From: Chiloscyllium plagiosum
Lineage: Eukaryota
Assembly (NCBI RefSeq): GCF_004010195.1
Contig: NC_057759.1
Location: 5,446,154-5,469,727, forward strand
Direction: 5' to 3'
DNA: 23,574 bases
A model generated the notes under the pieces. It worked only from the letters and a program-made list of their open reading frames with translations. It did not search any database and was not told the DNA's origin. The translations under genes were made by a program, and so were the position numbers. Positions 1,946 to 23,574 of this stretch are shown piece after piece; position 1 is the first letter of the stretch; each line of letters starts with the position of its first letter.

Positions 1946-2412
1946 ATTTGATCTGCTTTTTTATTGTTACACGCACTGAGATACAATGGAAAGTATTGTT
2001 TTGTGTACTTTACAGGCAGATAATATCATACAAAATGCTTCAGGGTAATAGAACAGAATCCGCAATACAGTATTAAAACTTCAAAGAGACAGACATTAAT
2101 GCTAAAAATTGAGCAAGATTAGAGTGGTGCTGGAAAAGCACAGCAGGTCAAGCAGCATCCGAGGAGCAGGAAAATTGACGTTTTGGGCAAAAGCCTTTCA
2201 TCAGGAATGTCTGAAACGTCGATTTTCCTCCACCTCGGATAATGCCTGACCTACTGTGCTTTTCCAGCACCACTCTAATCTTGACTCTAATCTCCAGCAG
2301 CTGCAGTACCTACTTTCGCCTTAAAATTTGAGCAGTCCATTCAAAGGTCTGATAACAGCAGAGAAGCTGTTCTTGGGTTTGTTGGGTGGTGCATTCAAAC
2401 TTCTGTATTTTC
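1945..2412 (-). mobile_element. Decayed LINE 3' end (possibly Rex1/Babar-like), split by a PLE-derived insert
   Basis: Resembles a common fish/shark LINE 3' region. The sequence is continuous across the TSD at 2103-2115 / 2322-2334. Confidence 0.4.
2116..2321. mobile_element. PLE-derived short palindromic element with hammerhead core and 13-bp TSD
   Basis: Inverted arms spanning 2114-2283. TSD TAAAA(A/T)TTGAGCA at 2103-2115 and 2322-2334. The minus strand reads CTGATGA-AAGGC-TTTT-GCCC-AAAAC-GTC at 2177-2204. Confidence 0.85.
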
Positions 2413-2664
2413 TGGTGGTAGCTAGGAAAATATTAATTTTTTCCAGAAGATAGGGTGATGAGTAAAAGACAGATGGAGAGAGAGTCCAAAGAAAGAAGAA
2501 CAATAGGACTTACAAAGGAGCGGATAACTGTCAGACTAAGTGGGTGAATAGTCTATTAATAGGGCCTGTTAGTGGCTCACAATTGGAGGTGTATAATAGC
2601 AGACTCTTTGTTAACAAGGCTGGACATGTGGGGTTTTGGGTAATGACATAGGAGAGCTCAAATC

Positions 2665-2925
2665 CTGTAGTTGTTGAACTCAATATCGAGTCCAGAAGGC
2701 TGTTCAGATCCCAAGCAGTAAATGAGGTGCTGTTCTTCCAGCTTGCACTGAGCTTCACTGGAGCACTGCAGCGAGTCTGAGACAGCGAACAGGGTGGTGT
2801 GTTGAAGTGGCAGGCAACTAGAAGCTCAGGGTCTTTTTGTCTGGATAGAATGTAGGTGTTCAGCACAGTGGACACCCAATCTACACTCAGTTTCCCCAAC
2901 ATAGAGGAGACCACATTGTGTGCAA
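2665..2925 (-). mobile_element. Penelope-like element, GIY-YIG endonuclease fragment
   Basis: Frameshifted translation gives CGLLYVGETECRLG...KDPELLVACHFNTP...QCSSEAQCKLEEQHLIYCLG...QPSGLDIEFNN, typical of vertebrate PLE C-termini. Confidence 0.88.
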
Positions 2926-2940
2926 TATCTTTGCCACCAT

Positions 2941-2975
2941 CAGTTCTGAAGACAGGTCACTGGACCTGAAATGTT
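2941..2975 (+). ncRNA. Minimal type I hammerhead motif (PLE pLTR), 3' flank truncated
   Basis: CTGAAGA-C-AGGTC-ACTG-GACCT-GAAA-TG-TT with a perfect 5-bp stem II, inverted relative to the adjacent GIY-YIG fragment. Confidence 0.75.
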
Positions 2976-2979
2976 TGTT

Positions 2980-3520
2980 TTGTTATCAATCTCTGCCTGT
3001 CAGTTTCTTCTCAGTGAATATGCAAGTGTCGCTATCAAAGTGTACACGTCAATGTATGCGATTTGAAATTGGGAGCATAATCAATCTATTCCAGTCAGTT
3101 TCTGCTTTATGAATATGAGAGTGTAGTTACCAATCTTTCTCTGAAATTTACTGCCATCTGCATGTGTGAGTTATTAACCAACCTGATCCTGTCAGATTCT
3201 GCTCTGTGCATCTGAGAGTGCAGTTATTAGTCTGTATCTATCAGCTTCTTGTTTATAAATGTGCAAATTCATTTATCATACTGTACCTGTCACGTTTTAC
3301 TATGCAAATGTGTTAGTCTAGTTATCAACCTGTACCTGTCATATGTGTTTGTGCATAATTGTTGTTCTCTCCCTTTCAGTTGCTGCAAGGTGAGAGCAGA
3401 TATTGATTGATGCCCGTCAGATTTGGCTGTTTCCATACAAGAGTTTAGGATTTGATGTATACATGCCAGTTTCTGCTGTGTGACTGTGAGAGCGAAGTTC
3501 TCAATGAGTTCCAGTCACTT
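2980..3520. repeat. Same minisatellite, block 2
   Basis: The same unit (TTATCAATCTCTGCCTGTCAGTTTCTTC...) resumes after about 1 kb of inserted elements. Confidence 0.85.
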
Positions 3521-3589
3521 TCAGCTCTAATATATCAAAGTTGCTCAATTCTCTGGCAGCCAATAATATACTAAGAGTCTACTGGTGTC

Positions 3590-3790
3590 CATGGATCTAT
3601 TGTTGATTGCCAGAAAAACTCATCTGGTTCAGTCATGTCCTTGAATGAAGGAAACTGCCATCCTTCCCTTGTCTGGCCTACATGTGACTCCAGACCCACA
3701 TCAATGTGGCTGCATGGGTAGTTAGGGATGGGCAATAAATGCTGGCTGAGTCAGTGATGCCCCATCCCATGAATGAATGAGAAAATAAAA
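3590..3790 (+). mobile_element. SINE body with LINE-derived 3' tail, 5' truncated
   Basis: Ends GGCAATAAATGCTGG...CATCCCATGAATGAATG plus an A-rich tail. The tail resembles the LINE ends at 7220 and 15245. Confidence 0.7.
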
Positions 3791-4433
3791 TTCAGTGACT
3801 GAGATTCAATCTGGTAATAGTGTTTAGGGTGTTGAGATCGGTCCTTAATCTCCTATGCATTTTGTGACTTATGACTCAATCACAGAATTGGTACAGCCAT
3901 TCAGCCTGTTGTGTCTGCACTGGGACATTCTATTCCTTATCTGTTCTCCATACTAGTTTCCATTAATTGTTGGGATTCTGATCTTCATTCACTCACTCAC
4001 TGCCAGTGTCTCGATGTAAGTGCCAATTTAAGATTAGTTCTGCAGTTATCGGCCTTTGAATACCTTTGAATAGTGCCAGTTTTGACAAGTCAAGGAAAGG
4101 ATGTTATTCTCTTTCTATGTTCAGTGATTTTTTTTTCCAGTCAGGGTGTTAGGATAAACCCATTCACTATTTGATAGACCTGAGTGATTGAGGGATCAAT
4201 GTTGGTTCATTACTTATCTTTGCAAAGAATCTGAATTTTATTGTATTCAATCTCAGTTTTCTTTTTACATTTTGCGTGTGCAGTAGTGTTTGGCAGTTGC
4301 TGCTGGGCACTGCAATAATGTAACATCTAATACTAACATCTTCTGAAGCGATTAATAATGTGGTCAGTCAATTTATGACTGTCCATATCTGGAAGCAGTT
4401 GTGGGCCTTAATTACACTTTTTTCACCTTTTAC

Positions 4434-4471
4434 CGGCTGAGTGAGAGAGAGTTTTTGGTTGTGTTGCCAAT
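4434..4471 (-). CDS. Candidate 38-nt linking exon (phase 2 to 1)
   Basis: tacag|ATTGGC...CAGCCG|gtaaaa. Joins 5303-5357 to 177-258 in frame (RLATQPKTLSHSAD). The acceptor is weak and an alternative AAG lies 8 nt upstream. Confidence 0.35.
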
Positions 4472-5302
4472 CTGTACCACTTTAAAGAATTGAGATCACA
4501 CAAACATTGTCTGTATGTCTCTGTGTGATTCCAGTTCTGATACACTTTATGAGGTGGTTTTAAGGTCTTATCAATCAGTGTTTCATACATTAAAAAAGTA
4601 TGGAAATGCTTCTGCATTACTGAGGCCCTCAACCAGAATGGGAGCGTGCATGAAGTGTGTTTTCATCAACACTCGGCTGAGAGTGAGAATGAGAGAGACA
4701 GAGAAAGACACAAATGCGTATGTACGTATGTGAATGAGCATTAAGCATCCTCTCTAAAAGCATCCTCTGTAGATAAGGCTTGACCAAGAGGTTCATTTGA
4801 AATTTACATTGTTGTCTTTGTACAGGACAACTGTTTATCAAAAGAATAATTTTGGCCTGCTCAATTACTCATAAGTGTCCAACATTGCTTCTATATCTGC
4901 ACTCAAATATACACTTCATATTTATATTTGTTATAACCATGTAACACCATGATTGGTTTGTTCAAATTGATTGTAACTTTAAAAATGCTAAATCTACATA
5001 TGAATTTAATGCAGCTCATAAATGTGTATTTATAAGCAGAAAGGCTAACCTGCTTCTAATCTTATGAACCTTCACAAACCTTGCAATCTGATGAATGATA
5101 ATTGGCTTTGAATAATGGAATTTACTGTCACTGAGGTGGTAAACACTGAGAACAGGGCAAAATAATATCGATTTATATACCGTCAGTTGTGTTTAACTCT
5201 TGGATTAAATGTGTACTTCTGGAAATGGAGCTCAATGTGTGTCTGACTCAATCCACTCAGACAGTAGAAAGGACATTCTCCTCTCTGACAGTGGTAACAT
5301 AC

Positions 5303-5357
5303 CTGCTGGGTGTGAGAAGCAGTTGGTCACTCTTGGATTGATCCATCAAATATTTGC
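5303..5357 (-). CDS. Short exon, paralogue of 177-258; may contain the start codon (ATG at 5346)
   Basis: Acceptor ctctctcttttgtctttctccag, donor CAGCAG|gtatgt, 55 nt. The only open frame is KYLMDQSKSDQLLLTPS. Confidence 0.6.
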
Positions 5358-5571
5358 CTGGAGAAAGACAAAAGAGAGAGCTCCTGTACATCACTAGCAG
5401 CTGAGTAGGAAGACATCAAATGATCAATGCAATATTCAGATCATGATCATTATAATTCTCTTTGTTTTTGAACAGGGCAAGGTGAACAGTTCCACTCAAG
5501 CTCCTTGCAGTCTTTTTCTGTTTCCCAAATTCTAAAACATTTCATTTAGATAAAATAAAATCACCACAAAT

Positions 5572-5853
5572 GATTAGATTAGTTACAGAGTGGAAACAGG
5601 CCCTTCGGCCCAACAAGTCCACACCGACCCGCCGAAGCGCAAACCACCCAGACCCATTCCCCTACATTTACCCCTTCGCCTAACACTACGGGCAATTTAG
5701 CATGGCCAATTCACCCAACCTGCACATTTTTGAACTGTGGGAGGAAACCCGAACAGACACGGGGAGAATGTACAAACTCCACTGAGGCGGGAATTGAACC
5801 CGGGTCTCTGGGGCTGAGGCAGCAGTGCTAACCATTGTGCCACCGTGCCGCCC
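5572..5853 (-). mobile_element. HE1-type V-SINE with internal deletions
   Basis: tRNA-like head GGGCGGCACGGTGGCACAATGG (A box), GTTCAATTCC (B box), partial V domain, CR1-type tail ending in TAATC repeats. Confidence 0.92.
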
Positions 5854-5937
5854 ACTATGGAATGATTACACAGTTCAATGTCCAGCTCCCAATATATTAA
5901 CTGTTGAAAAACAAATACTGGGAACGATTTCACATAC

Positions 5938-5972
5938 CTGGAGACGTTTATCCGGTGCCTGCTATATTTATC
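5938..5972 (-). other. Candidate 35-nt exon, probably 5' UTR
   Basis: cctgtgtag|GATAAA...CTCCAG|gtatgt with a strong donor. Carries a TAA in the frame of the next exon. Confidence 0.35.
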
Positions 5973-6238
5973 CTACACAGGATTATCACATTTGTTTTTA
6001 CTGTCCTTTATTTCAACGTCTATTCGCAACAAACAGCGTGAACCAGAAGCCAAAAAATGATTTCCCATCAGTGTTTAGGGGATTGCAAACCACAAGAATG
6101 TCCGACAGCAGCTTCTTCCCGCTCTGCCTCCCTCAGCAGGCCCACACACAGCCCGAGAAAGGCCTCTCTCTTCCCCCCAGCCTGCTCACTCCAAGTTCCG
6201 GGACCAGTTCCTGCTACGCTCGGCCTCTTACGGCCTCT

Positions 6239-6320
6239 TTCCTGAAGAAGGGCTAATGTCGATTCTCCTGTTCCCTAGATGCTGCCTGACCTGCTGCGCT
6301 TTTCCAGCAACACATTTCCA
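6239..6320 (+). mobile_element. PLE pLTR fragment with deleted hammerhead core
   Basis: CTGAAGA-AGGGCT followed by loss of GCCCGAA. The downstream GATGCTGCCTGACCTGCTGCGCTTTTCCAGCA matches the arms at 2114-2283. Confidence 0.8.
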
Positions 6321-6324
6321 CCAT

Positions 6325-6900
6325 TAAAATAATACATAAAGGCGGCGTTCGTTATTAATGCGTTCACGCCGAAGAACGTTCATGAAATCCTCACAGGGCT
6401 GAATGAGAGTGTTGGTTCTCTCCGAAGACAATCTCGAATTGGAAGGAGCCTGCTGTTCCCTCGCTTCCCTGGGCGCTGATCTCTCCATTGCGGTCTGTTT
6501 CAAACAAACCTCTTGCACTCACTGAGTAAATGCTCCTCAACGGCAGCGCTGGGGGAGGGCCTCACGCATGCGCTCCTTTACTCAGGAACAGTCAGCTTTG
6601 GGAAAGGGGCAGAAACGGGCTTGCGATGTTTTCCCAATGATTTCCAGAAACAAACATCAATTGGTCATTTCCCCATTTCCCTTTTCTCCCAGGTTGACCA
6701 AAGGAACTGGGGCTGTGGGGGAAAGGGCAGACAACGTTTCAAGCTGGGAACTTTCCCTTTATGAAGCTTCAATGGTGCTCATTCCCGGGTCATGTTAATA
6801 ACTCCTCCCTCCGGCTCTCTCACAATCTGATCAGGGAGCGGGGAAACTGGCGGCCACTTGGCCCATCCCCTGTGCTCCCCCATTCGATAACATCACGTCT
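6325..6900 (-). promoter_or_regulatory. CpG-rich promoter-like region with candidate first exon ending at 6523
   Basis: Locally high CpG; NRF1-like GCGCATGCGT (6564-6573); CCAAT at 6634-6638 and ATTGG at 6660-6664; minus-strand donor CTCA|gtgagt at 6517-6522. Confidence 0.45.
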
Positions 6901-7217
6901 GATCGAATGTTAACTGTGGTATTTAATCCTGCTGACCCTTCATCCACAAATATTAACTCCTTGACCAAAGTATCATACCGAGAGATGGAATAAGTAGACC
7001 AGTCTTACGAAGGCAGAAAATAACTGATGGAGAGAGTCTTGCGTCACAGTGTCAGAGCTTATTTCTGGGTCAGGAGACCCGTGGAAAAGTCAGACCTGGT
7101 GTGCAATAACATCTCTGGGACTCGATTTAGTTTGTTGTGGATGACAGATTTTAGTGTCATGTATGCTGCAGACAGAAACCTTGTGATGTATTGTATGCCA
7201 AACGAGAGACCCCAGCT

Positions 7218-7512
7218 GTTTTTGTTTATTCACTCCTGGAACGTGGATGTCGCTGGCTGAGCCTACCATTTATTCTCCATCCCTTTGAGAAGGCGGTGGT
7301 GAGCCACCTTCTGGAACAGCTGTTGTCCATGTGCTGCCCACAATGCCATGAGTTCCAGGGTCTTGATCCAGTGACAGTGAACGAAAGCGGTTTTATTTCC
7401 AAGTCAGCATGGTTCCCCTTGGAGGGGAACTTGTCCGACATCAAGGCCGTGTTCCCTGACATCAGCTGTCTTTATCGTTTTCGATGGAAGTAGTTGCGAT
7501 TTGGAAGGTCGT
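7218..7512 (-). mobile_element. L2/CR1-clade LINE 3' fragment
   Basis: Colinear with 15245-15520 and has the same tail type as the SINE at 3590-3790. Confidence 0.7.
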
Positions 7513-7787
7513 CCTTTTACAAATTACAAAACTCGAATCTCTTTGTCAGCGGCACAGACAGAAGTCTCTCTGGCCGATAGTGTGAAATCAGAATAGTGTG
7601 TTGTCTCCCTGGTGTCAGGATCAAGGATATCTCAGAGAGAATGCAGGATATTCACAAAGGGGCGTACACATTGGAACTAACTACACAGGAAGGGAAAGGG
7701 ATGATATTCCGAAGGAAGAATAAGGAAGAGAGGCAAGATCTTGGAAAGGAGGTCCTCTCCAGTTGTAATATCTAGATTACTCCCGCT

Positions 7788-8001
7788 TTAGGGTGTAGGT
7801 TCCTGGGGTTTGTGGTGATGTCATTTCCTGGAACCCCATCCAGGAGAAAGATATAAATAGAAAGCAGGAGACAACAGCATCGCTTCACTCGCCTCTGATG
7901 ATGTTACCTAGCTAGGTAGTGAAACGTCTGGATATCAAACCTACAGCTCAGCGAGCAAACCTACACCTCAACCTGAGCTAAAAACCTTCACAAATCTTGG
8001 A
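7788..8001 (+). mobile_element. 214-bp PLE-derived insertion in CR1 ORF1 with 12-bp TSD
   Basis: TSD ATTAC(T/G)CCCGCT at 7776-7787 and 8002-8013. Contains ATATAAATAG and a hammerhead motif. Confidence 0.85.
7891..7932 (+). ncRNA. Minimal type I hammerhead motif with all core nucleotides
   Basis: CTGATGA (7895-7901), T, stem II GTTACCT-AGCT-AGGTAGT, GAAA-CG-TC. Predicted cut after GUC at 7928. Helix I is weak. Confidence 0.8.
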
Positions 8002-9284
8002 ATTACGCCCGCTGCTACGATCGACTGAGGGTAGGAATAGGATGAGAGAGCAGAGGAATGCCCAGCTCAGGAACTGGTGCAGGAGAGAGGTGTTCAATTT
8101 TTGGATCATTGGAATCTCTTCTGGGGAAGGCGTGACTTGTAGAAAAAGGATGGAATACACCTGAATTGGAAGGGATCTACTATATTGGCAGGGACATTTC
8201 CTTGAGCTACTGGGGAGGGGTTAAACTAGCAAGGTGTAGGCGTGGGGTGAGGTCAGTGGGAACCGGGGAGATAGTGAACAAAGATATCAATCTGAGGCTG
8301 GTAGTCGGTAAATCAAACACCCAGGGCAGACAGGAACATAGCAGAGAATGTGGTTGGATTGATAACTTAAACTGCATTTATTTCAATGCAAGAAGGAGGG
8401 TGAACTCAGGACATGGTTAGGAAAATGGGATTGGAATTGGGATATCATAACAATTACAGAGACAAGATTTGGGGATGACACAACTGGCAGCTTAATGTTC
8501 CAGGAATCAAATGTTACAGGAAGGATGGGGGGAGGGGGTCAGCAAGAGAAAATGGGGAGTGACATATTTGGTAAGAGATAAGCTCACACCTTTACTGAGG
8601 CTTATATCCATGGAAATTTTTTGGATGGAAATGAGAAATAAGAAAGGGTTTAATCACTTTATTGGGATTGGACTGTAGACACCCTAACAGTCAGCAGGAA
8701 ATTGAGAAACAAATTTGTCAGGAGATCTTAGATCTGCAGGAATAATGGTGTGGTTTCGGTGAGGGATTTTAACATTCCAAACATAGATTATGGCTGCTAT
8801 ATTGTTAATGGTTTAGACAGAAAGGAATTTCTTAAGTGTGCACAAGAAAAGTTTCTGATTCAGTATGTGAATGCATCTTCTAGACAAGGTGCAAATCTTG
8901 ACCTACTCTTGTGACATAATGATGTGTCAGTGGGGGAGCACTTTGGGACCAACGACCATAATTTAATTAGTTTTAAAACTCTGATGGAAAAGGATAGACC
9001 AGATCTAAAATTTGAATTTCTAATTTGGAGGAAGGCCAATTTTGAGAGTATTGTGCAAAAACTTTCAAAAGTTGACTGACGGCAGATGTTCGCAGACAAA
9101 GTGATGGCTGAAAAATGGAAAGCCTTCGAAAATGAGGGTACAGAGACAGTATGTTCCTGTTCGGGTGAAAGGCATGACTGGTAGATGTAGGAAGTGCTGC
9201 ATGAGAAAATAAGTTGAGGTTTTGGTCCAAATAAGATGGAAACATATGTTAGTTAAATACAGGAGAAGTTGAGTGAATCCTTCG

Positions 9285-9361
9285 AAGAGTATAAAGGCAG
9301 TAGGGATATACTTAAGAAGGAAAAGAGTATAAAGGCAGTAGGGATATACTTAAGAAGGAAA
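9285..9361. repeat. 38-bp perfect tandem duplication in CR1
   Basis: AAGAGTATAAAGGCAGTAGGGATATACTTAAGAAGGAA repeated at 9285 and 9323. Confidence 0.95.
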
Positions 9362-9947
9362 TGAGGAGGGCAAAAAAGGGACATAACATACCTTTGGTAA
9401 ATAGTGTTAAGGAGAATTCAAATAGATTTTATAAATACATGAAGGTCAAAAGGGTAACCAGGGAAAGAAGAGGGCCCCAAGGCAGCCGATGTGTAGAAGA
9501 AAAGGAAAAGAGGAAGATACTAAGCGAGTGCTTACTGAGGAGAGGGAAATGGAAGATATAGAACATGGGGAAACAGATAGTGATCTTTAAAAATGTCTAT
9601 AATGCAGAGGATGTACTGCTGGGTGATTTTATACAGAAAAGGTGGATAAAGCACGAGCACCCGATCAGGGGGACCTGGAATATGGTGATAAGCTAGGGAA
9701 GTGATTGTTGGGCCCCTTGCTGAGATATTTGTATCATCCATCGTCACAGGTGAAGTGCAAATAGACTGGAGGCTGGCTAATGTTGTGCCACTATTTAAGA
9801 AAGGTGGTAAGGAAAAGCCAGGGAACTATTGAACAGTGAGCGTAACATCAACGGTAGGCAAACAGTTGAGGGGATTGTGAGAGACAGGATTACATCTTTT
9901 TGAAAGGCCAGGATTGATTAGGGGTATTCAATATGACTTTCTGTGTG

Positions 9948-10092
9948 GGAAGTACAAACTTTCGGAGTGCTGCTCCTCCATCAGGTGTCTGGATTTAGAA
10001 AGCTTGTACTTCCAAATAAACCTGTTGGACTATAACCTGGTGGAGTGTCATTTTTAACTTTGCACTCCCCAGTCCAGTACCTGCACCTCCAC
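9948..10092. mobile_element. PLE pLTR fragment with short inverted arms and degenerate hammerhead
   Basis: Arms at 9948-9963 and 9998-10013. The minus strand reads CTGATGG-A-GGAG-CAGCA-CTCC-GAAAG (A9 mutated). Confidence 0.75.
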
Positions 10093-10619
10093 GTTATGGT
10101 GAATGATTTGGATGTGAGGTTGCAGGTATTGTAAGTAAGTTTGCAGATTACACAAACAATGTAGGTGTAGTAAACAGCAAAGAAGGCTACCTCAGAATAC
10201 AGCAGGATCTCAATCAGATGGGCCACTGGACCCAGGAGTGACATATTGAGTTCAATTTAAATCAATATGAGGTGCTGCAATTGGAAAGGCAAATCAGGGC
10301 AGGACTTACACACTTAATATAAATGTCCTGTGGAGTGTTGCTGAGCAAAGAGACGTTGGAATGCAGGTTCATTGTTACTTGAACGTGGAGTTATAGTTAG
10401 AAAGGATAGCAAAGAAGGCATTTGATATGTTTTCGTTTACTGGTCAGAGCTCTGCTTATGTGACTTAGGAGAACATGTTATAGGTTTACAGAACATTGGT
10501 AATGCCACTTTTGGAATATTATGTGCAATTCTGGTCTCTCTCCTATAAAAAGAATATTGTGAAACTTGAAATGACTACTTAAGATAGTTTTTGGTCCAAA
10601 GAAAAGGCCTACAATTTGG

Positions 10620-11570
10620 GAAGAAATATAGCGAGACAGGAAGGCTGCAAACTGATCCAAATTCAGCAAATGACTGCGAAAAAGGATTTAACTAACAAAG
10701 AACAAATGAAGAAGAGAGTAATGTTGTGAAAACCATTTTTTATAAAACTGCTAAAACACTAATAAATGTGTAAAGAGAGAAATGAACATTAATAGGTTGG
10801 CAAAGAGGACCACATGCCATTTAAAAAAAAACTGCTAAAACACTAATAAATGTGTAAAGAGAGAAATGAACATAAATAGGTTGGCAAAGAGGATCACATG
10901 CCATTTAAAAAAACTGCTAAAACACCAATAAATGTGTAAAGAGAGAAATGAACATAAATAGGTTGGCAAAGAGGACCACATGCCACTTACAACATTAAAG
11001 AGGGAAGTTCAAAATGGGGAACGAAAATGTCTCAAAAAACGCTAACATATTATTGTTCTCTGTTCACAAATGTTCACACAACTAACACAGTAGTGATATT
11101 GGTGAGTTTAGTGAGAGGGAAGAACTGAACCAAATCAGTATATTTGAGAAATGATGTTGGGACAGTGGACAGGATTGAAGGTTGGGAAACACCAGTCCTT
11201 GATCATCTATGTCCCAGAGTATTTAATGTAGTGGGCTGAGTAATACTGGATGCAGTGATGGTCATGTTCCAAGATTCGAAACACTCTGACATAATTTACA
11301 CAGATTGGGGGCGAGGTAGTGTAAGCAATCCAATGGAAAAGGGAGGTAGGTATAAAATTGTGAACTATAGACCAGTCAGCCTGCAGGGAAAAAATCAAAA
11401 TGAAAGCTTCAATTGCGAAGCATTTGACAAAACAGTATTCAGGATCTGCTGGAGTCAGCATGAACATGAAGGGCCTGTTCCAGTGCACACTTCTGTCTTC
11501 TAAGCTTGACAAACCGACTGGCCATCATTGAGGGTGTAAACAGTAGAGTTGATGAGAGTGTAACAGTAAC
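10620..11570 (+). mobile_element. Older CR1 ORF2 fragment
   Basis: EKGGRYKIVNYRPVSL and GKTPVLDHLCPRV-like RT-proximal motifs. Confidence 0.7.
10744..10985. repeat. ~83-bp tandem triplication
   Basis: ACTGCTAAAACAC at 10747, 10831 and 10913; units nearly identical. Confidence 0.95.
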
Positions 11571-11744
11571 TGAGGAGAAAAAACTACAACTAACTCCCTG
11601 GGCACCGCTGCAAAGGCTGAAAGGATGAGACATTCTATCCTGCCACACTTACATTTGGTGATATTTCTGGCGTATGACTGTGTGAATGTGAATATTGTGT
11701 CAGAGAGGCTGTCGGAAAAGGGCGGACGGTTAGTCGAACGTAAC

Positions 11745-11751
11745 TGTGTTT
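11745..11751 (+). promoter_or_regulatory. Upstream TG box of the H1 promoter
   Basis: TGTGTTT, the exact reverse complement of the H1 box, starting 354 nt upstream of it. This fits the ~350 bp TG-box spacing I recall for amniote H1 genes. Confidence 0.6.
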
Positions 11752-12098
11752 GTGTGTCCGTGAATATTATGGTATTTCTGGGTCTCTCTTGTGAAAATCA
11801 AAAACATTTTCAATTCAACTTATTCCCCGGCTCCCCCACTAGACCCCAAAGGTAAAATTTAAGACGATGTATTCGTTGATTTCAAGATTGCAGTCTAAAA
11901 GTACCGACAATGTCAGCGCTCAGCTCAAAGAGCTCGATCTGTGCGGCAGCAAAACGCGTTTAACTCGACAGCGGAGCCATCTATTCGGGTGAAAACACTT
12001 CAGTCGCAACCCTTCCCTTGTCTGGATCAGGAGCGATCGAGCCTGGCTCTCTGGAGATGCGGAATTTCAGAGGAATCGGAGAGTTTAGGCCGTTAGAG

Positions 12099-12105
12099 AA
12101 ACACA
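12099..12105 (+). promoter_or_regulatory. H1 box (AC box)
   Basis: AAACACA in the context GAGAAACACAG, about 150 nt upstream of the H1 ATG. Confidence 0.8.
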
Positions 12106-12253
12106 GAAAGGCAGCAGGAACAGGGAGCTGACAGCAGGTTGTCCCTGCGCCGTCCGCTCGCTGCCTTGAAGTTGCTCAGTGCCGCCGCCAACAGCTTCAT
12201 TGCTGACCCAGTTCAGACTGACCCAGAGAGAGATTCAGCGCAGAGTTCTCAAC

Positions 12254-12666
12254 ATGAGCGACAGTGCAGCCGCCGAAACGGCTCCTCCTCCTTCAAACTC
12301 CCAAAGATTCCAGTCAAGGCAAAAGCGGGAAAGAAGGCGGGAACATCAGCGGCCGCCAAGAAACCGGCCGTGAAGAAATCACCGGCCAAGAAGGTGACAG
12401 CGAAGAAATCTAAGGTCAAGAAAGCGACAGTCAAGAAATCTCCAGCCAAGAAAGCGACAGTCAAGAAATCCCCAGCCAAGAAAGCCAGCGGTAAGAAGCC
12501 GGCACCGCCAAAGAAAGCGGTGAGCAAAGCAGCGCCAAAGAAACGGACTCCGGTGAAGAAGGTGAAAAAGGTCAAGGCCCCTAAAGCTCCCAAACCCCTC
12601 AGCAAACCGGCTAAAGGCAAGGCCAAGCCCAAAGCGAAAGTGACCAAGACAGCAGCAAAGAAATGA
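12254..12666 (+). pseudogene. H1: Histone H1 (replication-dependent type) with globular domain deleted and a frameshift
   Basis: ATG at 12254 reads MSDSAAAETAPP (H1 N-terminus). In a different frame, from 12289, it reads SFKLPK...KKSPAKK...AAKK* (end of the GASGSFKL motif plus 125 codons of Lys/Ala/Pro-rich tail, stop 12664-12666). The winged-helix domain between them is absent. The ATG frame stops at 12373 (39 aa). Confidence 0.93.
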
Positions 12667-12696
12667 TCCAGTCGGTGTAACATGTAACCATCTGAA

Positions 12697-12743
12697 CCCA
12701 AAGGCTCTTATCAGAGCCACCCACATCTCTCAGGAAAGAGCTG
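12697..12743 (+). terminator. Histone mRNA 3' processing signals: stem-loop and histone downstream element
   Basis: CCCAAA-GGCTCT-TATC-AGAGCC-ACCCA (hairpin 12703-12718) followed by AAAGAGCTG (12735-12743), matching the U7-binding HDE consensus. Confidence 0.96.
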
Positions 12744-13120
12744 AGCCCGGATCCAATGTTCCCCGTCCCGACGCCAAACACAAACCTGCCTTAGATGTTA
12801 ACTGATCTGAATAACTCAAATACACACTCATGCCATGGTTTACAAGAGCGGAGACTGGGGAATGGGAGAGAGTTTATTGATCTCCATCTGGTTATTTCAC
12901 TGCGCGACTTATAACTCTACCGAGTCACGAATGTGACATATTGTAGTGTTTGTATTTCACTGACCCGTTCAGGAATGTTACTTTGTTCAGTTTTGATTCT
13001 GAGACCCTGCGGATGTTTTCATGGCGTGTTCCTTCCATCTGCCTGTTACAGACAGTTCATGCAGCAATTCCACATTGTCTTCGGGCTAATTACAATCTGG
13101 GCGAAATACACAAAAAAACA

Positions 13121-13415
13121 GGGGCGGCACGGTAGTTCAATGGTTCGCACTGACGCCTCACAGCGCCAGGGACGTCAGTGTGGAGTTTGCACATTCTCCC
13201 CGTGTCTGCGTGGGTTTCCTCTGGGTGCTCCGGTTTCCACCCACAGTCCAAAGATGTGCATGTTAGGTGAATTGGCTGTGCTAAATTGCACATAATGCTA
13301 GATGGATTAGTCAGGAGAAAATGTAGGGGAAAGGGTCTGGGTGGGGTTGCTCTTCGGAGGGTCGGTGTGGACTTGTTGGGCCGAAGGGCCTGTCTCCACA
13401 CTGGGTAATCTAATC
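13121..13415 (+). mobile_element. HE1-type V-SINE with B-box region deleted
   Basis: GGGGCGGCACGGTAGTTCAATGG head, V domain TGTGGAGTTTGCACATTCTCCC, tail TAATCTAATC. Confidence 0.92.
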
Positions 13416-13487
13416 ATAAAATGAGATTCTGTCCTTTTATCGGTGTACACTGCATTAGCTTTTAAGATGTTTAAATTGGCGGGATTG

Positions 13488-13987
13488 NNNNNNNNNNNNN
13501 NNNNNNNNNNNNNNNNNNNNNNNNNNNNNNNNNNNNNNNNNNNNNNNNNNNNNNNNNNNNNNNNNNNNNNNNNNNNNNNNNNNNNNNNNNNNNNNNNNNN
13601 NNNNNNNNNNNNNNNNNNNNNNNNNNNNNNNNNNNNNNNNNNNNNNNNNNNNNNNNNNNNNNNNNNNNNNNNNNNNNNNNNNNNNNNNNNNNNNNNNNNN
13701 NNNNNNNNNNNNNNNNNNNNNNNNNNNNNNNNNNNNNNNNNNNNNNNNNNNNNNNNNNNNNNNNNNNNNNNNNNNNNNNNNNNNNNNNNNNNNNNNNNNN
13801 NNNNNNNNNNNNNNNNNNNNNNNNNNNNNNNNNNNNNNNNNNNNNNNNNNNNNNNNNNNNNNNNNNNNNNNNNNNNNNNNNNNNNNNNNNNNNNNNNNNN
13901 NNNNNNNNNNNNNNNNNNNNNNNNNNNNNNNNNNNNNNNNNNNNNNNNNNNNNNNNNNNNNNNNNNNNNNNNNNNNNNNNNNNNNNN
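13488..13987. other. Assembly gap (500 N)
   Basis: Run of exactly 500 N, suggesting a placeholder size. Confidence 0.99.
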
Positions 13988-15035
13988 TATGACTGTATAT
14001 GGAAAGGATCTTCCTGGGAATACGTCAAGAGAAGTTATTTGTGCAGAATTGAAAAATAAGAAAGGGATGGTCACGTTATTGTGATTGCACTATAGAGCCA
14101 CCGATAGTCAGCGGGAAATTGAGAAACAAATTTGTAAGGAGATCTCAGTTATCTGTAAGAATAACAGGGTGGCTTTGATAGGGGATTTTAACTTTACAAA
14201 CGTAGACGATGTAGAGGAATTTTTTACGTGTGTACAACAACATTTTCTGATTAAGTATGTGATTGTTCCTACTGGAGAAGATGGAAAACCTAATCTACTG
14301 TTGGGGAATAAGACAGAGCAAGTGACTGAGGTGGCAGTATGGGAAAACTTTGGGGTCAGTGCCCATAATTCTATTTATTTTAAATAGTGATGATAAAGAA
14401 GAGACAGGATCTAAAACTTAATGTTCTAAACTTGAATGGGTTCCAAAAATATTGACAAGCATTTTGCCACAAAACTTTGGGGTCAGTGCCCATAATTCTA
14501 TTTATTTTAAAATAGTGATGATAAAGAAGAGACAGGATCTAAAACTTAATGTTCTAAACTTGAATGGGTTCCAAAAATATTGACAAGCATTTTGCCACAG
14601 TTGGAGAGTTTGAGCTAAAGGGAGAGTCTGAATTGGCTGTGGCTGTTTTCTCTGGGGCCTCACAAGCTGAGGCTTGACCTTACAGAGGTTTATAAGATCA
14701 TGAGGGACTTGAATAGGGTTAATAGACACGGTCTTTGCGCTGAGTCCACAACTGGGGGGCATAGGTTTCAGTTTAGAGAAGAAAGATTTGAAATGGACCT
14801 AAGGGGCAACATTTTTCACAAACAGGGTGGTACGTGTTTGGAATGAGCTGCCAGAGGAAGTATTGGAGGCTGGTGCAATTACGTTTTAAAGGCATCTGGA
14901 TGGATATATGAATAGGAAGGGTTTAGAGAGATGTGGACAAAATGCTGACAAATGGTTCTAGGTTAGGTTCGGACATCTGTTTGGCGCACACCAGATGGAC
15001 GGAAAGGTGTGTTTCCGTGCTGTATAGCTCATGAC
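13988..15035 (+). mobile_element. CR1 ORF2: endonuclease joined to 3' end by a large internal deletion
   Basis: ALIGDFNF endonuclease motif, then a jump near 14425-14435 to KLEWVPK-like post-RT sequence and the CR1 3' UTR. Confidence 0.88.
14344..14599. repeat. 127-bp near-perfect tandem duplication
   Basis: AAAACTTTGGGGTCAG at 14344 and 14471. It spans the CR1 deletion junction. Confidence 0.95.
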
Positions 15036-15244
15036 TTGCAGTTCCTTGCTGAATATCAGTGTCAAATGATACTTTTCGGCAGGCACAATGGTATAATAAC
15101 TTTATTTCAATTAGCTTTACAATAATAAAGCTGAACAACTGCTGATCATCCTTACTAAGACCGAAAAATCCAAATAACAGTTAACTTACTGCACTGATTC
15201 CAAGTATGCCGCATTTGAACTCTTTTTCTCCACTACCATTCCCT

Positions 15245-16362
15245 TATTTTTTACTTCTGGGACATGGATGTGACTGACTGGGCCCAGCATTAATCACCCT
15301 TGAACCTTGAATCACAGCAGTTAATATGCTGTACATATGCCCCCCAGTGTCCTGAGGGAGGGATTTCCAGGACGTCAACCCAACGGCACTTAATAGACAG
15401 CCGATATATTTCCAAGTTAGAATGGTGAGTGGCTCGGAGGGGATATTGCAGGGTGTCATGTTCCTACGTATCCACTGCTCTTGTTCTTCCAGATGGAAGT
15501 GGTCATGAGTTTTGTCTCAGGATTGTTGGTGAGTTTGTGCAATAATCTTATAGATGGTACACACTGCTGCTATTGAGAATTGGTGGTTGAGGAAGTGGAT
15601 GTTGTGGATATGGTGCCAATCACGTGGGAGCTGCTTTGTTCAGGATAGAATAGAGTTTAGATTAGAGTGGTGCTTGAAATGCACAGTAGGTCAGGCAGCA
15701 TCCGAGGAGCACCAAAATCGATATTTCAGGCAGGAGCCCTTCATCAGATTCTCGAGTTTCTCGTGTGTTCTTGGAGCTGCATCCTGAGAAATGGGGAGTA
15801 TTGCATCACACTTCCGACTTGTGCCTTTTAAATCGTGGGCAGGTTTTGGGGGGAGTCAGGAGGTGAGTTACTCGCTGAAGTAGTCCTAACCTCTGGCGTG
15901 CTCTTGTAGCCACAGTACTGATATGGAGAGTCCAGTTCAGTTTCTGGTCAACAGTAACTCCCAGGACATCGGTAGTGGGGGTATTCAGTGATGACAATAC
16001 CATTGAAAATCAAGGGGGTTATGGTTAGATTCTCTCTCAAAGAGAACCACCGGGATGTTGGTATTGTGGGGGATAGGGTGTTGGTGGATTCAGTGATTTC
16101 AACATCATTCAAAATCAAGGGACGATGGTTCGATTCTCTCTCAATGGTAAACCCCAGAACGTTCGTAGTGAGGTGATTCAGTGATGGGAACATTATTGAA
16201 TATTAATAGGCTATGGTTCGGTTCTTTCTGATTGGAGAATGTAATAGCATAGTGCAAATGTCCCTTGCCACATTTCTGCACAAGCCTGGATATTATCAAT
16301 ATGTTGCTGCTTTTGGACATAGACTGCTTCAGTATCTGAGGACTGGCGAATGGAACTGAAGG
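15245..16362 (-). mobile_element. L2/CR1-clade LINE RT C-terminus and 3' end
   Basis: VLGVTVDQKLNWTLHISTVATRARQRLGLLQRV and IDNIQACAEMWQGTFA. Confidence 0.85.
15651..15747 (-). mobile_element. PLE pLTR fragment with hammerhead core
   Basis: Minus strand CTGATGA-A-GGGC-TCCT-GCCT-GAAA-TA-TC (15720-15747). Same family as 2116-2321. Confidence 0.8.
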
Positions 16363-19991: not shown

Positions 19992-20395
19992 GATTAGATG
20001 ACTTTTTAGATTACTTACAGTGTGGAAACAGGCCCTTTAGCCCAACAAGTCCACACCGACCCGACGAAGTGCAACCCACCCAGACCCATTCCCCTTCATT
20101 TACCCCTTCACCTAACACTACGGGCAATTTAGCGTGGCCAATTCACCTAACCTGCACATTTTTGGATTGTGGGAGGAAACCCCTCCGGCGACCGACTGTG
20201 TGGAGTTTGCACATTCTCCCCGTGTCTGCGTGGGTTTCCTCCGGATGCAGGTTAGGTGAATTGGCCACGCTAAAATTGCCTGTAGTGTTAGGTGCAGGGG
20301 TAAATGTAGGGGAATGGGTCTGGGTGGGTGCGCTTCGGCGGGTCGGTGTGGACTTGTTGGCCCGAAGGGCCTGTTTCCACACTGTAAGTAATCTA
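19992..20395. mobile_element. Two 5'-truncated HE1 SINEs head-to-head (inverted repeat)
   Basis: Minus copy to 20181, plus copy 20182-20395. Both 3' tails point outward. Confidence 0.92.
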
Positions 20396-20399
20396 ACTA

Positions 20400-20654
20400 T
20401 TTACAAATCCAAGCGCCCCTTTTCTTAGCTACTTAATATCTCGCTTCAACTCTGTTAAAAAAAAATGTTGTTCCACTCACACATTTATTTCACATTGCAT
20501 TAGCTTAATCTCAAGGCCTCACGGTCTTTTACAAATCCAAGCGCCCCTTTTCTTAGCTACTTAATATCTCGCTACAAATCTGTAAAAAAAAAATTTGTTC
20601 CACTAACACATTTATTTCACATTGCATTAGCTTAATCTCAAGGCCTCACGGTCT
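20400..20654. repeat. 128-bp tandem duplication
   Basis: TTTACAAATCCAAGCGCCCC at 20400 and 20528 with a few differences. Confidence 0.95.
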
Positions 20655-22109: not shown

Positions 22110-23535
22110 AAGCCAATTCTGAGCTAGCTGTGTCAATGTACTGTACACATGTAAATAAAGGGTGACTTGACTGACCACCAGCCTCAGTGGAGTTATTTCA
22201 GTAGCAATTGACTGACGCATTTTCGTCTCTACATCTGATGTTAATACATTAACTGGAAGGTACTTCTGACACCATCCCATCCATAAACAGTTTGAAAGCC
22301 TGGATATAGACTGAATAGCTTTATGTATTTAGATTGCTTTTTGCTGGAATGAGATATGCCTTGGGATGAACATTCATAATATGACAGCATTTTTCGTTAG
22401 GATTGAGAGTGAGATTTTGAGGCTAGTTTCCTGAATCTTAATAAGGAAAACTATGATGGTACGAGGCATGAGTAGGCTATGATGGATTGGGAAATGTTAC
22501 TGAAAAGAATGAGATTGGGTGGACATTCAGCAAATGAATGGGTTAACTATCAAATTATTTATTCCAACCTGATTTAAGTGCAACGAGAACAGTGGCCAAA
22601 CTATGGCTTACAGAGGAAGTTTCAGAACGCATTAGATACAAAAAAGTCATTCAAATTAGCAAGAAAAGAAACAATAGCATTGAAGATGAGGAACTGTTCA
22701 GAAGTTACCGAAGGAGCACCAAAAGATTAGGTGCCAAGAGGCAACTAGAGTATGAGTGCAGGATTGCAGGGAACATAAGAACTGACGGTAAAAGCTTCTG
22801 CAAATATGAAAAGAGAAAAAAAATCTGAAAACCAATCTAAGTCCCTTGCAGTCAGAAACAAGAGAATTTACACTGAGCAACAAAGAAACGGCTGATGAAC
22901 TAAATTATACTTCATTTCTATCTTCATACAGGAGATAAAAACTGTGCTGGAAATGATGGGGAACACAAAAGTTGTTGAGAGGGAGGAAATAAAGGAATAT
23001 TGCTGGGGAAATTGATGGGATGCAAGGGAGATCAATGTTCAGGACCTGACAATCTACATCTCAGAGTGGTTAAGGAAGAGGTCTTAGAATTAGTGGTTGC
23101 ATTGGTGATAGTGATCAAGGATCCAACAGACTGTGGGACAGTGCCTATGGATTAGACGGTTGCTGGTGCATCCTTACTATTTAAAAAGGGAAGTAGAGTC
23201 ATAGAGTAATGCAGCATGGAAATAGGCCCTATGGCCCAAATAAGTCCTCTGTTAATTAAAACCAGGCACCCAGAAAAGCTCACCTTGGCTCTTAATCTAT
23301 TAAAATGCGAGTGAGTGATAGAGAATTCCTAATTTCTACTATTTAGATTAGATGACTTTTTAGATTACTTACAGTGTGGAAACAGGCCCTTTAGCTCAAC
23401 AAGTCCACACCGACCCGACGAAGCGCAACCCACCCAGACCCATTCCCCTTCATTTACCCCTTCACCTAACACTACGGGCAATTTAGCGTGGCCAATTCAC
23501 CTAACCTGCACATTTTTGGATTGTGGGAGGAAACC
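22110..23535 (+). repeat. Segmental duplicate of 18382-20181
   Basis: Colinear and highly similar from AAGCCAATTCTGAG. Offset 3728 before the 380-bp duplication and about 3350 after it. Confidence 0.96.
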
Positions 23536-23574
23536 GGAGCACCCGGAGGAAACCCACGCAGACACGGGGAGAAT
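23345..23574 (-). mobile_element. HE1-type V-SINE running off the window end
   Basis: Tail and V domain in reverse orientation. Confidence 0.92.

Follow-up and report, generated by a model that had tools for sequence, protein, structure and literature searches.

We analysed a stretch of 23,574 nucleotides from Chiloscyllium plagiosum (assembly GCF_004010195.1, contig NC_057759.1, which is C50 in our list, positions 5,446,154 to 5,469,727), hereafter called the window, which carries six hammerhead-ribozyme-like motifs. Very probably these are decayed hammerheads within truncated or fold-back stubs of four families (A to D) of Penelope-like elements (PLEs), and the stubs likely arose by reverse transcription that ran off uncut element RNA. 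That the six motifs belong to PLE stubs is virtually certain. For the run-off step taken alone, in which the RNA would start four bases before the ribozyme core and the first complementary DNA (cDNA) would run off that end, we consider the chances about even.

The abundance of the motif was determined throughout the 3.56 Gb genome with the pattern CTGANGAN{13,19}GAAASSTH, using the reversed pattern as control. Exact-core matches amounted to 110,008 + 110,024 = 220,032, or about 62 per Mb, compared to 2,638 + 2,577 = 5,215 for the reversed control. This leaves about 215,000 exact cores over background, such that the claim of very abundant short ribozyme-bearing PLE copies in the preliminary description of the window holds at the scale of the genome. 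As a genome sample we used 100 stretches of 10 kb at fixed positions, together 957,103 bases after exclusion of N, which provided 64 descriptor matches (67/Mb), with 2 for the reversed control. By homology alone the same sample contained 184 family A tails, which extrapolates to several hundred thousand copies. The window itself is ordinary in this respect: the rate in the sample predicts 1.5 exact cores where 3 were seen (Poisson P ~0.2, hand calculation), and 4 family A tails were found for 4.4 expected. The possibility that the window is a cluster of ribozymes was thus ruled out, its motif density being average for this genome.

Within the window a descriptor comprising the core, stem II and the UH bases detected 3 sites, while 40 dinucleotide shuffles gave a mean of 0.075 and none of them reached 3. 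When one core mismatch was permitted, the shuffles yielded approximately one match per window. An extra candidate at 5088-5124 (+), which has one core mismatch and matches no family, was treated as such a chance match. An Rfam scan of the window returned no hammerhead family even at E<=10, its only result being a histone stem-loop close to the cut-off.

Support for a folded ribozyme comes from positions that the search left free. Helix I, which is not required by the descriptor, pairs at 3 or more of its 4 positions in 51 of the 64 sample matches vs 13.5% of random DNA. Positions 15.2-16.2 read CG or GC in 38 matches and carry CpG-decay forms in 23 more (61/64 in total), and G10.1 is paired with C or U in 62/64. 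Between families, covariation is seen in helix I, in stem II and in the palindromic helix III, with 7 of 9 pairs changing on both sides among 14 intact copies that represent all families. The resulting cross-family covariation of 0.608, compared to 0.224 +/- 0.038 for shuffles (reached in 0 of 500) and to at most 0.2 for slid registers, is inflated by the relatedness and hand selection of these 14 copies, and two family D rows in the set are misaligned by one column. An invariant core and stem II covariation had been proposed as hallmarks of the family hammerheads; both were found, the covariation across families. In family A variation is seen at N7 and in loop II, besides decay at CpG. Among the sampled A copies that span the motif, the core is exact in 41/65, and core, stem II and palindrome are kept together in 21/65. 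Taken together, these structural data suggest that selection acted in the master lineages, while the dispersed copies decay. Predicted monomer folding energies, calculated for 9 sequences, were no better than those of shuffles and are uninformative.

The families differ in their helices. Family A, represented in the window by the motifs starting at 2177, 6242 and 15720, has a stem II of the form GGGC-N4-GCCC and a helix III reading ACGU, which is common to families A, B and C. In family D stem II reads GGAG-N5-CUCC, and helix III reads AGCU in intact copies. The stem II length is 4-5 bp in A, B and D.

All four families are linked to a GIY-YIG endonuclease, which establishes the PLE origin that had previously only been inferred. 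The family A hammerhead is located in the 3' untranslated region (UTR) of an element with a reverse transcriptase (RT), a CNRRRCNTC linker and a GIY-YIG domain. When loci were fetched by the endonuclease only, an A hammerhead followed downstream on the same strand in 26 of 30, at a distance of 159 nt from the protein match in 21 of these 26. Five loop variants of family A were each found in endonuclease-linked long copies; the UCCU variant of the 15720 copy was not among the endonuclease-linked ones. For family B, an endonuclease fragment lies in the window itself at 2661-2924 (-) (tblastn E 4.6e-9), and the body around it is 71% identical over 430 nt to L178, in which the B hammerhead comes 57 nt later. 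The GIY-YIG frame of family C is without linker and its last codons are overlapped by the hammerhead; fetching by RT only placed the C hammerhead at the endonuclease end in 12 of 16 stretches. An ATG opens stem II of this family, 28 nt before the cleavage site. In family D the endonuclease lies 730-856 nt upstream of the hammerhead in 3 independent loci and the linker reads CHGRRCKTC. RT and endonuclease were thus both seen for A and C, and the endonuclease region only for B and D. Pfam GIY-YIG scores were 16-23 bits, with two of three fragments at or below the cut-off of 22.6, and a Pfam GIY-YIG search of the genome, which was too insensitive, gave 1 weak match. From the linker motif rather than from a tree, A and D would be classified as Neptune-type and C as Penelope/Poseidon-type; family B, the linker of which is not in view, is likely Neptune-type by similarity.

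Two side observations concern these families. The hammerhead DNA of family C is read in two frames (L036:2656-2732; window 7895-7990), one being the endonuclease end and the other a frame initiated at the ATG of stem II, which starts MLPSQVMKRLDIKP and is likely the N-terminus of the element. More hammerhead families, related to C and B, were seen in L085:2490-2523, L200:4931-4964, L170:9735-9768 and L060:535-565. They carry compensatory changes in helix I and stem II and are not present in the window.

The manner in which the copies end provides insight into their origin. For family A, 120 of the 184 sampled copies had usable 5' ends, as 9 were too close to the end of a stretch and 55 were dropped (N or partial match); in simulations true 5' ends were recovered to within a few bases. 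An end at 27-40 nt upstream of the cleavage site was found in 57/120 copies and an end at the cleavage site in 1/120. Young copies behaved alike (17/40 and 0/40, respectively), which rules out that copies start at the cleavage site. The homogeneous CUGU subfamily of A (9,650 matches) resolved this pile-up further: among the first 100 copies listed, counted by hand, 61 have their 5' end 0-7 nt ahead of C3, most often at 3-4 nt (39 copies); the end lies at 8-24 nt in 4, and the remaining 35 extend further. For family B a hand count placed the end within 7 nt of C3 in approximately 73-76 of the 100 exact copies, which were all included. Per base, the end rate is 0.04-0.09 in the pile-up vs 0.004-0.01 at other AT-rich motifs of the 3' UTR. 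The base four positions before C3 is the A of TCATT in family A and of TCAGTT in family B, and both (TCAKT) fit what we take to be the initiator consensus. The A and B pile-up likely marks the start of the element RNA. 5' ends just before the core, together with nearly none at the cleavage site, suggest run-off reverse transcription of uncut RNA.

Many copies are not solitary: an inverted partner is present in 53/120 family A copies. Independent of any reference, the cleavage sites of head-to-head neighbours are separated by <=75 nt in 21/26 A pairs, counting those less than 500 nt apart, and by 53-96 nt in 7/7 D pairs, and tail-to-tail pairs never come under 700 nt. The fold-back junctions vary from copy to copy, and the same ribozyme variants are common to long and short copies. 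In 15/38 short non-inverted A copies the (A)TTC start directly adjoins a duplication of 8-18 bp, a count made without shuffled control. Since the duplications abut the copy starts, at least those copies are insertion products and not later deletions. Young A copies have two alternative 3' ends about 36 nt apart, located ~60 nt (8/27) or ~98 nt (16/27) after the cleavage site. The preliminary description had viewed the copies as short PLE derivatives. Their derivation from PLEs stands; a separate non-autonomous family is not what they form, as they are rather truncated and fold-back products of endonuclease-bearing families. As a side observation, the optional tail of family A (~+80 to +98 after the cleavage site, e.g. 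in L137 and L139) reads CTCAC followed by a pyrimidine run. This resembles a branch point and 3' splice tract; the 5' region may hold an intron, as in Drosophila Penelope.

For the formation of the stubs we propose the following process. The RT would start 60-100 nt downstream of the ribozyme and would copy the uncut RNA back to its 5' end, a few bases before the core. The first cDNA would often be integrated alone or folded back, while a template jump would be needed for longer copies. Selection would maintain the ribozyme in the master elements, and cleavage would require either assistance by the protein or a tandem arrangement. The copies in the window would be inert and decay neutrally. 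Published work describes a PLE protein that starts reverse transcription internally, downstream of the ribozyme, on unprocessed RNA, and an anole PLE ribozyme that folds and cuts only with the protein of the element (PMC11167929). An internal promoter with initiator (Inr) and downstream promoter element (DPE) was described for the Penelope repeat (PMC2377424), and the in vitro activity of minimal hammerhead dimers is low (PMC4209133). Cleavage of dispersed copies as dimers in cis appears improbable, because neighbours are mostly antisense: among 137 family A tails, same-strand pairs within 1 kb numbered only 5. A head-to-tail tandem hammerhead array was not found in the window. In its most specific form, the proposal states that transcription of these Neptune-type families starts at an initiator 4 nt before the core and that integrated cDNA resembling retroviral strong-stop DNA seeded several hundred thousand stubs of 95-135 bp that consist of start and ribozyme; this we advance tentatively, at slightly less than an even chance. 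If true, the template would carry the hammerhead at its extreme 5' end, where it would be copied uncut, the genome would record a PLE reverse-transcription intermediate at single-base resolution, and its ribozyme load may be among the largest reported in vertebrates.

RNA reads were inspected in run X21, a poly(A) single-cell library that is unsuited to mapping transcript starts or cleavage ends. Reads from both strands cover the A motif and extend over the cleavage site. No read of run X22 could be aligned. Given the many genomic copies and the kind of library, they show neither element-driven transcription nor an absence of cleavage. Loose read ends at ATTC (X21, X15) agree with the pile-up; they are confounded by subfamily divergence upstream and were not counted as evidence. 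The CUGU subfamily carries AATAAA ~50 nt after the cleavage site (L253:6828-6840), and 64 X21 reads become poly(A) shortly after it. Separate from the question of stub formation, CUGU stubs may supply polyadenylation signals to host transcripts.

Several observations weigh against the proposed explanation. The pile-up of family D is broader (~3-9 nt before C3) and lacks an initiator match. Family C exhibits no pile-up, the depth being flat across the ribozyme; long 5' extensions were seen in a separate sample that is biased to long copies. An extra G, the signature of a cap, does not characterise the junctions, being present in 2 of the 11 non-inverted copies ending at ATTC (hand count). A partial-tandem master with intact frame was not among 32 stretches of 7.5-9.5 kb, many of which are gapped. 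X21 contained no site at which many molecules start or end, in a library that is poorly suited to reveal one. Within family A, stem II does not covary and decays mostly at CpG. The uncontrolled duplication count and the composition of the covariation set, both given above, have to be added to this side.

One alternative retains the PLE origin and attributes the pile-up to the chemistry of integration, i.e. to an endonuclease cut of the cDNA or to its annealing, with the target or with itself, at short microhomology (ATT, TTC/GAA or the stem II hairpin) on the 5' edge of the ribozyme. The anole PLE endonuclease has a preference for 5'-ATT-3' (PMC11167929), the triplet found at -4 in family A. 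The self-complementarity of TTC/GAA is frequently exploited at inverted junctions, inverted partners are as frequent as described above, and several duplications share 1-3 nt with the element start. However, family B piles up at the same offset with AGTT instead of ATT, the target duplications do not consistently end in ATT, and AT-rich motifs further upstream in the 3' UTR are not hot spots, as their low end rates indicate. We regard integration chemistry as an unlikely though serious candidate. A structural boundary at the base of helix I, where the folded ribozyme or a bound protein stops the RT or halts RNA trimming in the 5'-to-3' direction, seems rather improbable. It would account for the pile-up falling on the 5' strand of helix I in families A, B and D, and the protein-dependent folding of the anole ribozyme (PMC11167929) speaks for it as well. 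A polymerase moving from 3' to 5' should, from general knowledge, stall at the 3' side of the helix and not past it, and family C lacks a pile-up in spite of its equivalent helix I; the folding energies do not favour a stable structure over shuffles either.

That the short units form an independent non-autonomous family, a ribozyme-bearing short interspersed element (SINE) or retrozyme that is transcribed, cleaves itself and spreads on its own, we hold to be very unlikely. Short units (95-135 bp) that have target duplications exist in very large numbers and would hold a start, a ribozyme and a priming site, and some poly(A) reads (the 64 mentioned above) end just past the repeat. Tandem retrozymes derived from PLE repeats are furthermore described in vertebrates, including one cartilaginous fish (bioRxiv 2026.07.22.740005). 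Against this, the five A loop variants all occur in endonuclease-linked long copies, short and long copies have an identical ribozyme, junctions vary copy by copy, tandem arrangement is rare (the 5 same-strand pairs among 137 tails) and the ends are not at the cleavage site. Chance matches to a short descriptor, finally, have a negligible probability. One-mismatch shuffles reach about one match per window, three of the six motifs are mutated and Rfam finds none of them, but the genome-wide and sample counts refute this explanation, and family homology and covariation argue against it as well.

All six motifs were located where the preliminary description had placed them (Table 1), with the family D motif starting at 9956 rather than 9957 and being one base longer. 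The reported division into three copies with the full CUGANGA/GAAA/UH core (2946, 7895, 15720) and three mutated copies (2177, 6242, 9956) was reproduced. Four types of stem II are present as claimed; the 6242 copy is unable to pair its own. The 9956 copy carries substitutions only. In the 15720 copy, which is cut at C3, the 5' strand of helix I consists of flanking DNA; in the 2946 copy the 3' strand was lost to a 49-bp repeat array; and the 7895 copy has a mutated, U-U closing pair. Helix I is therefore absent or broken in all three exact-core copies, and none of the six is an intact ribozyme: read against intact relatives, core and helix I are kept together in 0/6.

Table 1. PLE-derived features of the window (positions count from its first letter).
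Feature	Position	Strand	Remarks
Left target-site duplication	2103-2115	.	13 bp, 12/13 identical to 2322-2334
Family A (Neptune-type, from linker motif) fold-back arm	2116-2208	-	starts at ATTC, 4 nt before C3; no tail
Family A minimal type I hammerhead	2177-2204	-	G12A (GAAA reads AAAA); helix I closing pair lost
Inverted partner arm, family A	2208-2321	+	starts within hammerhead (GAAACGUC half only); optional tail ~36 nt
Right target-site duplication	2322-2334	.	partner of 2103-2115
Family B body	2415-2930	-	decayed GIY-YIG C-terminus (2661-2924) and 3' UTR
Family B hammerhead	2946-2975	+	exact core; G10.1-C11.1 replaced by A-U; sits in inverted arm
Family A short copy, UAAU loop variant	6234-6322	+	contains hammerhead 6242-6261
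Family A hammerhead	6242-6261	+	9-nt deletion removes stem II 3' strand and GAAA
Family C (Penelope/Poseidon-type, from linker motif) 3' end	7820-7990	+	last endonuclease codons overlap hammerhead
Family C hammerhead	7895-7928	+	exact core; 7-bp stem II beginning at ATG
Family D hammerhead	9956-9984	-	A9 changed to G (A9G); helix III mutated
Inverted partner arm of family D copy	9998-10095	+	starts at GAAA
Family A short copy, UCCU loop variant	15655-15747	-	5' end at C3
Family A hammerhead	15720-15747	-	exact core

The segment 2116-2321 is a textbook insertion unit: its two arms are inverted relative to each other and meet at the ribozyme, only one of them has a tail, and the target duplication measures 13 bp. 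The family B body breaks off immediately before its own hammerhead, and the family C 3' end is 79-100% identical to P0001 (tblastn). An inverted partner of the family C copy was noted at 7765-7830 (-), from which the hammerhead was apparently lost via an internal deletion at short microhomology. For the segments 2870-2985, 9975-10100 and 15655-15755, most of the best matches lie on the same contig C50, which is small, and have the same junctions. This indicates that those copies multiplied as passengers of segmental duplications.

Other features of the window are listed for completeness. Degenerate tandem arrays of 47-49 bp units (19 copies, 60-75% identity) occupy 500-1930 and 2971-3520, with an inverted block at ~650-1000, and one of them truncates the family B copy. 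A histone H1-like pseudogene at 12254-12743 (+) joins N-terminal codons out of frame to a lysine-rich tail. Its globular domain is missing (no Pfam match), and it is followed by a histone 3' stem-loop scoring 33.7 bits at a cut-off of 34. Between 18500 and 23574 a tandem duplication of ~3.35 kb with 98-99% identity and a 380-bp internal tandem represent either a recent duplication or an assembly artefact. Copies of a tRNA-derived SINE with CR1-like tail, which we take to be of HE1 type, lie at 5574-5835, 13140-13400, 20006-20400 and 23360-23574, the one at 20006-20400 being a truncated head-to-head pair. Together with CR1-type fragments of long interspersed elements (LINEs), these SINEs presumably correspond to those of sharks and rays.

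The arrangement as such is of a known kind; what is of real interest is confined to its scale in this genome and to the 5' boundary, which is resolved to a single base. For annotation this means that several hundred thousand stubs in one genome are invisible to scans for open reading frames and to Rfam. With respect to the role of hammerheads in PLE transposition, the genome provides a very large natural record of RT starts and stops. The record of 5' ends argues against ribozyme cleavage as the source of the template's 5' end and singles out a precise site, -4. Our literature search, which left subscription papers and Repbase mostly uncovered, found no report of hammerheads or of a 5'-end pile-up in shark-type PLEs.

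Minimal hammerheads in the pseudo-long-terminal repeats of metazoan PLEs are known (Cervera & De la Peña 2014, PMC4209133). The motifs described here share with them the type I core, the extra base after A9, the G at 10.1 and the palindromic 15.2-16.2, as well as the occurrence of several families per genome, mostly as single motifs from truncated PLEs, and opposite-strand motif pairs 100-700 bp apart. They differ in their stem II, which is only 4-5 bp long in A, B and D. In scale, ~215,000 exact cores over background compare with ~4,000 in coelacanth and ~9,000 in Xenopus, numbers obtained with different descriptors, theirs being stricter and requiring helix I. The consulted parts of the main text of that paper name no shark and no 5'-end pile-up.

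Further parallels exist to the Poseidon element PAc of the green anole (Frangieh et al. 2024, PMC11167929): family C has its ATG at the beginning of stem II, 28 nt before the cleavage site compared to 26 in PAc, the two 3' ends of family A about 36 nt apart recall the two reverse-transcription starts of PAc, and in both systems no copies or reads begin at the cleavage site, apart from the single A copy noted above. In contrast to PAc, families A, B and D have their endonuclease separated from the ribozyme by a 3' UTR, which measures ~160 nt in A and 730-860 nt in D; the linker of A and D is of the form C-x4-C-x2-C; and A, B and D copies stop at the 5' edge of the ribozyme. A Neptune linker C-x2-5-C-x2-C between RT and endonuclease is described, also for Nematis (PMC8557442). 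Non-LTR retrozymes (bioRxiv 2026.07.22.740005) are similar in being non-coding, in their type I hammerhead and in their relation to PLE repeats, but they form head-to-tail tandem arrays, whereas the copies described here are single or head-to-head. The copies also resemble canonical endonuclease-bearing PLE insertion units of the Neptune/Nematis and Penelope/Poseidon clades (Arkhipova et al. 2013, PMC3846280; Craig et al. 2021, PMC8557442). While most A, B and D units differ from these in measuring only 95-135 bp, or ~200 bp as fold-backs, and no partial-tandem full-length copy was present in the stretches examined, both exhibit heavy 5' truncation, an adjacent inverted copy, an optional tail of 30-40 bp at one end, target duplications, palindromic inversion junctions and an Inr-like motif within the repeat.

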